Positions 29,144 to 32,572 of a DNA stretch of 64,000 nt are shown here, piece after piece. Numbering within the stretch: the first letter of the stretch is position 1; every line of letters starts with the position of its first letter. A program made the translations under genes and the position numbers. The notes beneath the pieces were generated by a model. It worked only from the letters and a program-made list of their open reading frames with translations, did no database searches and had not been told where the DNA came from. Origin of the DNA: Spirochaetia bacterium (GTDB lineage: Bacteria; Spirochaetota; Spirochaetia; DSM-2461); contig OY764216.1 of NCBI GenBank assembly GCA_963668315.1, forward strand, positions 224,001-288,000. Reading direction: 5' to 3'.

Positions 29144-30352
29144 ATGAAAGATTATGACTATTTGATTATCGGGGCTTCCAAGGCGGGAATGACGGCTGCG
29201 GAAACGCTGCGCGGGCATGACGGAGAGGCTTCGATAGTGATGATTAACGGGGAGGACAGGCTCCCTTATAAAAGAACGGGGCTGACGAAAAAGCTCGCGG
29301 CGGGATTTGACTGTGATGAGTTTGCCCTCCACCCTTTTGAATGGTACGGGGAGAACGGGATTGACCTGATAACCTCTCCCGCGGTGGTTCTGAACGGGAA
29401 AAACCGCACTGTGACGGTGGAGTCGGGGGAAGTTTTCAAGGCGGGGAAGATTCTGATTGCCACCGGGGCCGTTCCCAGGAAGATAGGTATTCCCGGAGAG
29501 GAGGAGATCTGCCATCTGCGAAGGGCCGATGAGACGGAAAAGATTCGCGCCGCTCTGAAGAAGGGCGACCGGGTTCTGGTCATCGGCCAGGGCGTGGAAG
29601 GGGTCGAGATGGCGGAGCAGCTCTCGCTGAGCGGACTGTCGGTGCTTTCCTTGAGCAGCAGTTCCCGGCTTATGTCCCGCTGGCTGGATCCTTTCCTTTC
29701 CCGGAGGCTGGCCGATCTGCTGGCGGCCCACGGGATAGAGCTTCTTTTCGACCGCACTCTCCTCTCCCTGACGCCGGGGGAGAAGAAGATCCTCGCGGTC
29801 CGGTCGCCGGAAGGGCCGGAAGAACATGCCGCCGATCTGGTTCTCGCGTCCATCGGCGTTCAGGCGGATACGGCGCTGCTGGCGACCCCGGAGGGGAAAA
29901 GTCTCCTCGGCAGGGGGGGCATTCGCTGTAATTCCTTTCTGCAGACGGACTGGGACGGGGTATTTGCCGCTGGCGATGTGGTGGATGTTCCCGGCGGATG
30001 GGCAACGGGACTTTGGCATTCGGCGGAGCACCAGGGCCGGATTGCCGCTTTGAATATGGCGGGGGTTCCCACGGAATGGACGAATCTTCCGGTCAGACTG
30101 AAGTGCGAGGTTTTCGGGGATTTCTACTTTTCCATGGCCTACGATCTGGTTCAGAGTGAAAAGGATGGGGAGGAAAAGACTCTCATCTGCGATGATGCCC
30201 GTTATCTCAGGGTTTTCTTCAGGGAAGGCCGCCTCAGGGGCGCCCTTATGCAGGGGATGAAGGCCTTTGCCAAGCCTCTGGCGAAGCTGGTCGTCGACGG
30301 TGGTACCGAAGAAGAACTCCGGGAGAGCCTCGGCAAAGGCGGTTTCTGCTAG
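29144..30352 (+). CDS. NAD(P)/FAD-dependent oxidoreductase (rubredoxin/ferredoxin reductase-like)
   Basis: IIGASKAG, LIATGA, VIGQGVEGVE and LQTDWDGVFAAGD motifs. Confidence 0.88.
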   Translation: MKDYDYLIIGASKAGMTAAETLRGHDGEASIVMINGEDRLPYKRTGLTKKLAAGFDCDEFALHPFEWYGENGIDLITSPAVVLNGKNRTVTVESGEVFKAGKILIATGAVPRKIGIPGEEEICHLRRADETEKIRAALKKGDRVLVIGQGVEGVEMAEQLSLSGLSVLSLSSSSRLMSRWLDPFLSRRLADLLAAHGIELLFDRTLLSLTPGEKKILAVRSPEGPEEHAADLVLASIGVQADTALLATPEGKSLLGRGGIRCNSFLQTDWDGVFAAGDVVDVPGGWATGLWHSAEHQGRIAALNMAGVPTEWTNLPVRLKCEVFGDFYFSMAYDLVQSEKDGEEKTLICDDARYLRVFFREGRLRGALMQGMKAFAKPLAKLVVDGGTEEELRESLGKGGFC

Positions 30353-31644
30353 CGGTTCAGCATATAGGTCAGGGATTTTTTCAGGTTTTCCCAGATTGCC
30401 AGCCGTCTGGCATCATCGTTCTCCAGAAGGGTGACCCGGAACCCGGGAAGGTCGGAACAGAATCCGCTCAGGGGAACCGTGCAGAGCCCGGCTCCGCCCA
30501 GAAGGTTATACACCAGCTGTTTGTCCCGGGCGGCATCGGCGACCAGGGGGTCAAGATAGGAGGCGATCTCCGGCTTCAGGGGGAGAGGACGGAAATCGGC
30601 CAGCCTCTCCTGGTCCAGGAGCACGGTCAGATAGAAGGCGCCCTTGGGCAGATTGACCCGGACGCCGGGAATGGTATTGAGTATGTCAACCGCTTCCACG
30701 GCGCGGCGGCTGAACATGTCGGCCCGCCTGTCCAGGTGCTCCCGGTAGCGGGGATCGCCGAAGACGAGGGGGATGGACATCTGGGGAAGGCTCGTGGAAC
30801 AGACTTCCAGCCGCTTGGCATCGATAAGGGATTTAATGAAGCGGTCGAAGTTCGCATCCCGGCTCCGGTTGAAGATCTCCATCCAGCCGCAGCGGCCGCC
30901 GGGCCAGGGATACTCCTTGCTGATGCTGCGCATGGCGATTCCCGGAACTTCCCCGATAACTTCACTTAAATGGCAGGTTTCTGCGCCGTTGTAGACGATG
31001 TGGGCATAGGTTTCGTCGCACAGAACAAAAAGATCGTACCGGCGGGCGATATCCACGATGCCCAGAAGGACCTCCCGGGGATAAACGGCGCCGGTGGGAT
31101 TATCCGGATTGATGAGAAGAATGCCGGCGATGGCATCGTTATAGCGGACTTTATTTTCCAGGTCTTCCAGATCGGGCATCCAGTTGTTCTCGGGATCCAG
31201 CTTATAGGTGGTATGGTCGTATCCCGAATGGGCCGCTTCGGCACTGGACAGGGTGGAATAGGCGGGCGAGGGTCCGATAACCCGGGCTTCCCTTTTGAGA
31301 AAGGCGAACAGGGTGGATACGGCATCGCCCAGGCCGTTGAAAAAAATGATATCGTCCCCGGTGATTTCACAGCCGCCGCGCTGATTCACATGGTCGGCCA
31401 GAAAATCCCGGGTGTGGTAATCCCCTTCGGTTGCCGTGTAACCGTAACTGTGGCTCTGCGACGCCAGGTCGACAACGATATCGCGGATCCAGGGGGCCAC
31501 TTCCTCCCCCTTCTGGATGGGGTCGCCTATGTTTTCATAGGTCATTGCCACCCCCATGGCTTCCAGACGTCTGGCTGTGCCGACAATTTCCCGGATTTCA
31601 TAGCGGAGCCTGTCGGCCCCTTCCCATACGATGCTTCGTCTCAT
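30349..31644 (-). CDS. Class I/II PLP aminotransferase, AlaA/AlaAT-like (MJ1479-type), putative alanine transaminase
   Basis: YEIRE...ENIGDP N-terminus typical of alanine aminotransferase homologues; INPDNPTG, DETY and SISK(PLP)...GGRCGW; SD GGAGGAG before ATG 31644. Confidence 0.85.
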   Translation of the reverse strand: MRRSIVWEGADRLRYEIREIVGTARRLEAMGVAMTYENIGDPIQKGEEVAPWIRDIVVDLASQSHSYGYTATEGDYHTRDFLADHVNQRGGCEITGDDIIFFNGLGDAVSTLFAFLKREARVIGPSPAYSTLSSAEAAHSGYDHTTYKLDPENNWMPDLEDLENKVRYNDAIAGILLINPDNPTGAVYPREVLLGIVDIARRYDLFVLCDETYAHIVYNGAETCHLSEVIGEVPGIAMRSISKEYPWPGGRCGWMEIFNRSRDANFDRFIKSLIDAKRLEVCSTSLPQMSIPLVFGDPRYREHLDRRADMFSRRAVEAVDILNTIPGVRVNLPKGAFYLTVLLDQERLADFRPLPLKPEIASYLDPLVADAARDKQLVYNLLGGAGLCTVPLSGFCSDLPGFRVTLLENDDARRLAIWENLKKSLTYMLNR

Positions 31645-31683
31645 CTTCGTACTCCTCCGCCGTCTGTTCCGGGGCCGGGATAT

Positions 31684-31716
31684 AAAAAAACCGCGGTCCC
31701 CGATGGGAACCACGGC
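31684..31716 (-). terminator. Attenuator terminator in the aminotransferase 5' leader
   Basis: GCCGUGGUUCCC-AUC-GGGGACCGCGG then U7, 40 nt upstream of the ATG. Confidence 0.85.
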
Positions 31717-31735
31717 ATGCTTTCATGTTAAACGG

Positions 31736-31819
31736 TCAGCCGTGCATTCCCCTGAAAAGGGCCGCGGCCGCCTGGGCTGAGAGTTTACCGAATTGTGTAA
31801 TACGGATCATTTCTGCCAT
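31736..31819 (-). CDS. Leaderless Ala-rich leader peptide MAEMIRITQFGKLSAQAAAALFRGMHG (27 aa)
   Basis: ATG 6 nt below the -10; codons 15-20 are GCC CAG GCG GCC GCG GCC; TGA lies 19 nt before the terminator stem. Confidence 0.7.
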   Translation of the reverse strand: MAEMIRITQFGKLSAQAAAALFRGMHG

Positions 31820-31825
31820 GGCCTC

Positions 31826-31854
31826 ATAATAACCGGAGCTTCGGGGCTGGTCAA
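31826..31854 (-). promoter_or_regulatory. sigma70 promoter of leader peptide/aminotransferase
   Basis: TTGACC-17-TATTAT. Confidence 0.8.
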
Positions 31855-31936
31855 GGGCGGAGAAAAGGCTATTTTATGGCGGTTCCGGAGTAAAACGGGC
31901 CTATGCGAAAAAAAAGAAGGGGTATATGATAGTCCT

Positions 31937-32572
31937 ATGCAAAATGTTCACACCACGGAAGAGAAACTTAACGCTCTCACCCATAATATCGGAGCGGGCC
32001 TGAGTATAGCCGGTCTGGTCTTTCTTCTTTACCTGACGAAACTGAGAGAAGGAACATGCATGCACTATGTCTCCTTTTCCCTTTACGGCGCCTTCCAGAT
32101 CCTGCTGTACCTCTCATCAGGTCTTACCCACAGTTTTACGGATAAGCCCAAAATCCACGAAGTCCTGCGGATTACCGACCAGGCTTCGGTTTACCTGCTG
32201 ATAGCCGGGACCTATACGCCCATCGCCCTGGTAACACTGCGGGGAGCCTGGGGATGGTCGATTTTCGGCGTTATCTGGGGAATGGCCCTGCTGGGGATTA
32301 CGGTCAAGCTGATTCTGGGGCCGCGGAAGCATATCATATCGGATCTGTTCTACGTTCCCATGGGATGGACGATAGTGGTGGCCATAAAGCCGCTCATGCG
32401 GGTGGCCCCGGCGGGACTTCTGATGTGGGTCGCCATCGGAGGACTCTGCTACACGGTGGGAATTATTTTCTATCTGGTGAAGAAGATGCCCTACGGCCAC
32501 GTTCTCTGGCATCTTTTCGTGCTGGGGGGAAGCATCTCCTTTTATCTGGGTTTCGCGAAGTTTCTCATCTGA
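31937..32572 (+). CDS. Hemolysin III / PAQR family membrane protein
   Basis: EEKLNALTH, DQASVYLLIAGTYTP and HVLWHLFV motifs; 7 TM; ATG 6 nt below TATGAT. Confidence 0.92.
   Translation: MQNVHTTEEKLNALTHNIGAGLSIAGLVFLLYLTKLREGTCMHYVSFSLYGAFQILLYLSSGLTHSFTDKPKIHEVLRITDQASVYLLIAGTYTPIALVTLRGAWGWSIFGVIWGMALLGITVKLILGPRKHIISDLFYVPMGWTIVVAIKPLMRVAPAGLLMWVAIGGLCYTVGIIFYLVKKMPYGHVLWHLFVLGGSISFYLGFAKFLI

Follow-up and report, generated by a model that had tools for sequence, protein, structure and literature searches.

The leaders trpL, hisL, thrL, leuL, ilvL and pheL/pheM of Escherichia coli are the classical leader-peptide attenuators, and their layout is the one that textbooks give. A short open reading frame (ORF) with a run of codons for one residue lies directly before a biosynthetic gene, and the leader RNA can form overlapping helices in which segment 3 pairs either with segment 2 (antiterminator, 2:3) or with segment 4 (terminator, 3:4). 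Large surveys of attenuation have reportedly been made by the groups of Lyubetsky and Gelfand. The classical systems are summarised in the introduction of a study on leaderless poly-Cys sORF attenuators of mycobacteria (10.1101/834739). As far as the covered parts of that paper go, the poly-Cys elements resemble the one described here in being leaderless short ORFs with tandem sensor codons and in occurring as several independent copies per genome; they differ in responding to cysteine and in that the dissected case controls translation by masking of the Shine-Dalgarno (SD) sequence.

Alanine leaders have precedents as well. In Streptomyces lividans TK24 (Actinobacteria), the Ala-rich leader peptide alaL was proposed from RNA-seq as an alanine attenuator, and was termed undescribed there (PMC8079986). 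It precedes alaS, encoding alanyl-tRNA synthetase, and not a transaminase gene, and its 6 Ala are scattered over 22 residues, whereas the spirochaete leader carries a tandem run; the covered parts of that paper contain no alanine test or analysis of 2:3 and 3:4. In mycobacteria, the Ala-enriched uORF of whiB7, which also has a terminator/antiterminator switch, senses alanine starvation and raises the alanine aminotransferase AspC through WhiB7 (PMC10274678; 10.1101/2025.10.10.681568; parts of both papers covered). There the alanine-starvation response is experimental, whereas that of the spirochaete leader is predicted from sequence. The whiB7 uORF is also long and mixed, senses many amino acids as well as antibiotics, and acts via WhiB7 and not in cis on the enzyme gene.

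The original prediction assumed that no Ala leader-peptide attenuator had been described, nor one in spirochaetes. The first half does not hold, given alaL and the whiB7 uORF; the second half stands, as the full-text literature, with subscription journals and some supplements outside its scope, yielded no leader-peptide attenuator described in spirochaetes. Within the same scope, no tandem-Ala attenuator acting in cis on an aminotransferase gene was found. The covered parts of PMC2965389, PMC8632094, PMC11109978, PMC4833913, 10.1101/2023.08.31.555715 and 10.1101/2024.10.14.618325 do not mention the element; the supplements of PMC11109978 and PMC8632094, largely outside these parts, could list the motif. 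PMC11109978, in its covered parts, includes a Geobacter genome and refers to eight uORF candidates in its supplement.

The element described here lies before an aminotransferase gene in the window, the whole 64,000-nt stretch of spirochaete DNA that was analysed. Its proposed mechanism is classical, and it shares with the E. coli systems the short ORF with a one-residue codon run, the overlapping 2:3 and 3:4 helices and the position directly before a gene of predicted biosynthetic role. It differs from them in that it would sense alanine and start leaderless, in its spirochaete host, in matching no Rfam leader family, and in having a weak 1:2 helix that is rivalled by 1:3 pairing.

Anatomy of the leader element

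All parts of the element lie on the minus strand. A −35 hexamer TTGACC (31849..31854) and a −10 hexamer TATTAT (31826..31831) are separated by a spacer of 17 nt, and the −10 box ends 6 nt before the ATG of the leader ORF, a leaderless spacing. The putative transcription start would be at or next to the A of this ATG. The leader ORF has 27 codons (31736..31819; ATG at 31819, TGA at 31738-31736) and contains the control codons GCC CAG GCG GCC GCG GCC (31760..31777), with 5 Ala in 6 codons. Segment 1 (31758..31768) overlaps the Ala codons, and segment 2 (31739..31752), the 5′ arm of the antiterminator, is the 3′ end of the ORF. Segment 3 (31705..31716) is common to antiterminator and terminator, and segment 4 (31691..31701), the 3′ arm of the terminator, runs into a U7 tract (31684..31690), as in an intrinsic terminator. 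A possible segment 5 (31671..31679) might form a helix with segment 4 once the latter is released, or might cover the SD sequence GGAGGAG (31652..31658) of the downstream gene. This gene (30349..31644, ATG at 31644) encodes an AlaA-like PRK06855 pyridoxal phosphate (PLP) aminotransferase of 431 residues. Direct reading of the minus strand bore out every predicted coordinate of the promoter, leader ORF, segments, U7 tract, SD sequence and aminotransferase ATG.

A convergent oxidoreductase gene overlaps the aminotransferase stop codon and a divergent TrhA-like gene lies on the other flank; the aminotransferase gene is therefore probably transcribed alone, as a monocistronic unit. The divergent gene (window ~31937-32572, plus strand) encodes a PAQR/TrhA membrane protein (hemolysin III family), scores above the family cut-off and is, as far as seen, unrelated to the leader element. 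Neither the Rfam leader families nor the T-box (RF00230) gave a covariance-model match in 31300-32300 at E<=5; the Rfam scan returned two matches in all, both of which we attribute to chance.

Conservation and reading frame of the alanine run

The aminotransferase is present in 67 of 401 genomes of the class Spirochaetia. We compared 67 loci, consisting of the upstream DNA of 65 of these genomes (in two it is cut by contig ends) and of two further class members. An Ala-run leader ORF, defined by an ATG and at least 4 Ala in 7 codons, precedes the PRK06855 gene in 53 of the 67 loci; the script counted 54, and L203 was dropped by eye (409 nt away, no promoter). One additional Ala leader was found on a separate fragment (L266). 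Three loci of one AT-rich genus (L028, L082 and L083) keep the promoter, the 2:3 pairing and the terminator, with the Ala run down to two or three codons, and here the run appears to have decayed.

No leader is found in 11 of the 67 loci, including that of the nearest relative, L002, whose protein is the sister of the window protein in a FastTree phylogeny. In five of these 11 (L002, L018, L020, L021 and L191), TTGAC lies 36-37 nt before the enzyme ATG, as if the attenuator had been deleted cleanly from ATG to ATG, which would leave a leaderless enzyme mRNA. In L024, the promoter-anchored ATG reads in frame into the aminotransferase gene.

To define the frame of the run from DNA alone, we located at each locus the (GCN)4+ run of greatest length and the ATG anchored to the promoter; 48 loci have both, 3 have a run without a TTGAC anchor and 16 lack such a run. 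In all 48 testable loci the frame set by the ATG reads the GCN run as Ala, the distance between ATG and run being 10-16 or 18 codons. These loci are kin and do not represent 48 independent trials, yet the eight different spacings are all in frame. Codon positions 1 and 2 of the run are fixed and the third varies (GCC 89, GCA 84, GCG 73, GCT 20). The conserved Ala runs with synonymous variation that had been predicted for orthologues are thus present. The equivalent leader ORFs have 18-37 codons in the 48 loci, and the peptide ahead of the Ala run shows no conservation among the compared leaders. In 40 of the 48 loci the leader ATG follows TTGAC at a distance of 35-37 nt, with the −10 box mostly 6-7 nt upstream, a spacing that would fit a leaderless start.

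The GCN run might have been kept only as RNA structure, as a GC-rich, near-palindromic arm pairing with segments 2 or 3, in which case the leader would respond to general translation stress, a protein or a ligand, and not to alanine. The Ala codons can indeed pair with both segments, few of their third positions are T (20 of 266), and the whiB7 uORF senses many stresses (PMC10274678, parts covered). A structure needs no frame, yet the runs keep the Ala frame over all spacings and vary only at the third position; moreover, the sister leaders described below have T-rich or A-rich runs that match their genes, and the enzyme downstream is AlaA-like. We therefore regard a purely structural role as very unlikely.

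A model built from the alignment gave 21 matches at E<1e-5 in 61 genomes, all of them ahead of a PRK06855 gene and 2 outside the training set. Seven weaker matches were examined and proved to be generic terminators. In two genomes of one genus (L272 and L277), a conserved short ORF with the same last few residues and a terminator precede a short unknown gene, and this ORF is a possible further leader.

Chance level and sister leaders in the same genome

Taken singly, the promoter-like and terminator-like sites at the locus are at chance level (1 of each found, against 0.9 and 1.1 expected, in 1 kb around the locus), which would suit a chance short ORF ahead of a constitutive terminator. Taken together, the parts are unique. 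The 5.6-Mb genome has 169 short ORFs with TTGAC 35-37 nt before the ATG; 2 of them have at least 4 Ala in 7 codons and 6 have a terminator, and the combination occurs once, in the leader studied. With this uniqueness, the conservation in 53 loci across many families and the selection on frame, the chance explanation is refuted, and we assign it practically no weight.

A wider scan of the genome returned 978 promoter-anchored short ORFs, 13 of which have first a terminator and then a long gene behind them. Eight of the 13 have at least 4 of one residue in 7 codons, and six of these eight stand before a cognate gene: Val-valS, Tyr-tyrS, Lys-lysS, Phe-pheS, Ile/Leu-leuA and Thr-asd (L207-L209 and L211-L213; G000:C1 2931215(+), 2988800(+), 3906515(+), 197784(-), 872797(-) and 466043(-)). 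TTGAC lies 35-40 nt before their ATGs. Since six of eight leaders match their gene, the codon run names the amino acid of the downstream gene in this genome. The remaining two are the Ala leader studied and a Phe/Tyr leader before an aldolase-like gene.

The Phe/Tyr leader and its terminator (L210:3780-4000; G000:C1:4111466, minus strand) precede a gene weakly like 4-hydroxy-2-oxovalerate aldolase (125 bits against a cut-off of 229), and the core of this leader is kept in the three closest orthologues (L281-L283) and not in nine other loci. The leader points to a role of the aldolase-like gene in aromatic amino-acid synthesis, which would make leader peptides useful as annotation tools. The Tyr leader is found in 3 of 20 tyrS loci, all three in the genus of the window. 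The lysS-like ORF behind the Lys leader (L209:209-1132; G000:C1 ~3906660-3907530) stops after ~290 codons and covers the first half of the family model, so that it represents a frameshift, a pseudogene or an assembly error.

The search for an alanine regulon was negative. The genome also encodes a canonical AlaA and an alanine dehydrogenase (ald), and no Ala leader was found before either of these genes, alaS or 13 other class I/II aminotransferase genes checked, an absence that counts against the attenuator reading. The T-box model has a sole match in the genome, G000:C1:2656507-2656778 (L218), at 71 bits and below the cut-off of 93. This T-box-like match lies just before a gene weakly similar to an AlaRS domain.

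Folding of the leader

At the studied locus the 3:4 terminator has a folding energy of −21.6 kcal/mol (z −4.6), and 0 of 200 shuffles are as good. The 2:3 antiterminator (−19.2 kcal/mol, z −2.4) is equalled by 2 of 200 shuffles. The 1:2 helix (−15.0 kcal/mol, z −0.3; 77 of 200 shuffles as good) is no better than chance alone; segments 1 and 2 can pair, as predicted, and the pairing does not stand out from shuffles.

Covariation was assessed in an alignment of 32 of the 37 extracted leaders, from which L182, L198, L199, L202 and L205 (long or two-hairpin) were excluded. In the terminator, 94% of the cells are paired, compared with 35-52% in slid registers, and double changes occur at 9 of 11 pairs, in 36 cells against 12.7 in shuffles, a level that 0 of 500 shuffles reach. 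In the 2:3 helix, 78% of the cells are paired, compared with 37-55% in slid registers; its bulges shift position between leader subtypes. On the sequence alignment, covariation of this helix does not reach significance, with 111 and 36 of 500 shuffles doing equally well. The expectation that both stems would covary was thus confirmed for 3:4 and not for 2:3.

The 2:3 pairing was also analysed locus by locus, in 44 of the 48 loci (4 could not be parsed). The best pairing of segment 3 with the region that follows the Ala run has a median energy of −16.4 kcal/mol, against −9.0 kcal/mol in dinucleotide shuffles, and in 37 of the 44 loci it outdoes the shuffles, no more than 5 in 100 of which match it. 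Segment 2 ends within −5 to +2 nt of the first base of the stop codon in 30 of the 44.

We then modelled the nascent RNA at the point where segment 3 is complete, and treated 12 nt, counted from the A-site codon, as blocked by the ribosome. When the ribosome stands on the first or middle Ala codon, segment 3 is captured in all 44 loci; when it has reached the stop codon, this happens in 3 of 44, a contrast that is partly built in, because more RNA is blocked in the latter case. In untranslated nascent RNA, segment 3 is already captured in 35 of 44 loci, at the studied locus via the Ala codons themselves (1:3). A protective 1:2 helix of the trp/his type is therefore doubtful, and knocking out the leader ATG might fail to produce super-attenuation of the trp kind. 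No other part of the attenuator reading is as weak as the 1:2 helix.

The switch appeared in the nascent-RNA model only. Equilibrium folding of full leaders showed none, and the terminator wins despite a stalled ribosome in 38-46 of 47 loci; at the studied locus it forms at 0.95-0.98 even with a stalled ribosome. Therefore, the switch must be kinetic, that is co-transcriptional, with 2:3 forming first.

A U tail follows the first hairpin in 35 of 44 loci and is absent in 9; several of these 9 have a second terminator further on. In the two-hairpin subtype (L081, L195, L196, L200, L202, L204, L205, L016 and L181), the first hairpin lacks a U tail and a second terminator comes after it, implying one more switching step.

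Proposed mechanism

We consider it highly likely that the element is a ribosome-mediated transcription attenuator of the trp/his type, which would gauge alanyl-tRNA and act kinetically. Its anatomy, the conservation, the frame selection, the mutually exclusive helices and the cognate match of the sister leaders support this reading directly; from them we infer the start site, translation, stalling, termination and enzyme substrate. The leader has an ORF at the 5′ end with clustered codons under frame selection, an intrinsic terminator between this ORF and the structural gene, and a 2:3 helix that is free with the ribosome on the control codons and covered with the ribosome at the stop codon. 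The predicted alanine-specific, ribosome-read attenuator is upheld by the conservation tests that were run, covariation of 2:3 excepted; the Ala leader is real and conserved, and it is very probably an alanine-sensing attenuator.

We propose that transcription starts at the leader AUG and that the ribosome would load directly on the 5′ end. When charged tRNA-Ala is plentiful, the ribosome would reach the stop codon and cover segment 2; the 3:4 terminator, for which folding and covariation provide the structure, could then form and would release an RNA of ~135 nt. When alanine is short, the ribosome would stall on the Ala run and leave segment 2 exposed, and exposed segment 2 would capture segment 3 before segment 4 is made. 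RNA polymerase would then read into the aminotransferase gene, whose product would make alanine from pyruvate.

An alanine-sensing leader could also exert its control partly or mainly on translation, if freed segment 4 paired with the fifth segment and so unmasked the SD sequence of the enzyme gene. At the locus, locking segment 4 lowers SD accessibility from 0.73 to 0.25, 12 of 33 loci have a 4:5 duplex that is better than shuffles, and in some loci the first hairpin is not followed by a U tail. At the studied locus, however, the 4:5 duplex fails against shuffles (38 of 100 as good), only 8 of 33 loci gain more than 0.2 in SD accessibility while 2 lose some, and a strong, covarying terminator with a U tract is the rule. 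Translational control would be at most an added layer to the transcription attenuator, and we see little prospect of it being the main one.

The aminotransferase

The enzyme is a member of PRK06855 (NF005334), with 616.5 bits against a cut-off of 443, and it stays below the cut-off of the PRK08363 alanine aminotransferases (169.9 bits against 534). At least 7557 proteins belong to PRK06855, judged by E<=1e-60 in a scored set of 8000 candidates, and the curated name of the family gives no substrate. All 75 genomes sampled from one spirochaete family have the gene. The original prediction described a poorly characterised enzyme of MJ1479 type, and no paper matched 'MJ1479' in the full-text literature. 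The enzyme proved less obscure: the JGI label on several homologues is 'alanine-synthesizing transaminase', and the best solved relatives are E. coli AlaA (PDB 4cvq) and 1xi9, with a distant similarity to AlaA (E 2e-41).

In AlaA, the residues for alanine selection and glutamate binding are Tyr15, Ile17, Arg18, Ile40, Gly41, Tyr129, Asn179 and Leu276 (PMC4094517, parts covered). They map to Y15, I17, R18, I39, G40, Y129, N182 and V281, which are invariant in 20 diverse homologues; Leu276 of AlaA is Val in the PRK06855 enzyme. AlaA Arg378, outside the aligned stretch, can be matched to the invariant R404 by inference only. The plug (Tyr15, Ile17 and Arg18) and the narrow pocket (the other five residues) of the nearest solved relative (4cvq; PMC4094517, parts covered) are thus conserved in a distinct subfamily, PRK06855, whose alanine activity is predicted. 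The retained AlaA active-site residues are consistent with alanine as the product, as had been proposed, and the enzyme probably makes it from pyruvate.

The attenuator might sense alanine and yet control an enzyme that is not a glutamate:pyruvate transaminase, but uses another amino donor or supplies alanine indirectly. The distance to AlaA leaves room for this, the same genome holds a canonical AlaA (E 4e-178 to 4cvq), and aminotransferases are promiscuous (PMC4094517, parts covered). Against it, the alanine-selecting pocket and the glutamate-binding plug of Tyr15 and Arg18 are invariant in the family. We judge such an enzyme improbable, though less so than the structural and translational alternatives above; it is compatible with the attenuator and would leave that reading intact.

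Alanine leaders in other lineages

Among 80 named loci across phyla, 14 have an Ala-rich ATG ORF, 8 of them in spirochaetes, 4 in a Desulfuromonadales clade and 2, doubtful, in planctomycetes. The planctomycete ORFs (L132 and L136) have no terminator and were not counted. The gene occurs in 113 of 121 genomes of the order Desulfuromonadales; of the 30 loci that score best, 24 carry an Ala-rich leader before a conserved hairpin and a U tract. These leaders (L220-L249, L155, L164, L168 and L174) often read Ala-Arg-Ala before the Ala run and are built differently: in many of them the ATG is preceded by an SD-like stretch and, ~50-65 nt upstream, by a promoter. Their antiterminators are better than shuffles in only 6 of 24 loci, and the mechanism is therefore less secure in this order. 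In a rough FastTree phylogeny, the Desulfuromonadales proteins make up a clade separate from that of the spirochaetes, and lineages lacking the leader branch between the two, which suggests an independent origin of the Desulfuromonadales Ala leader.

We lean, with some reserve, towards a wider picture in which free-living Spirochaetia gauge amino acids with leaderless leader-peptide attenuators (Ala, Val, Tyr, Lys, Phe, Thr, Ile/Leu and Phe/Tyr in this genome) that replace T-boxes. The Ala attenuator would be ancestral to much of the class, would have been lost repeatedly by clean deletion fusing the promoter to the enzyme ATG, and would have had a second, independent origin in Desulfuromonadales, before genes of the same enzyme family. 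The spirochaete element would be the first attenuator dedicated to alanine that controls a biosynthetic enzyme in cis, and PRK06855 would be a biosynthetic alanine transaminase. Alanine biosynthesis would then join the pathways under a classical cis-acting leader-peptide attenuator, leader-peptide attenuation would extend to spirochaetes, from which we found no earlier report, and a large family without a substrate in its curated name would gain a testable function. With ~135 nt, the element is small enough to be tested as a cassette in a reporter, and it might find use as a genetically encoded sensor of alanine.

No Ala leader was found in 37 loci of family f41 (Leptospira-like, grouping with a named Leptospiraceae protein), in which the gene is mostly close behind another gene, nor in families f35, f49, f55, f61 and f65. 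Locus L164 is labelled Pedobacter, and its protein and leader group with the Desulfuromonadales clade. In another class of the spirochaete phylum (G448, L064), an Ala-rich short ORF and a hairpin without a U tract lie before the orthologue.
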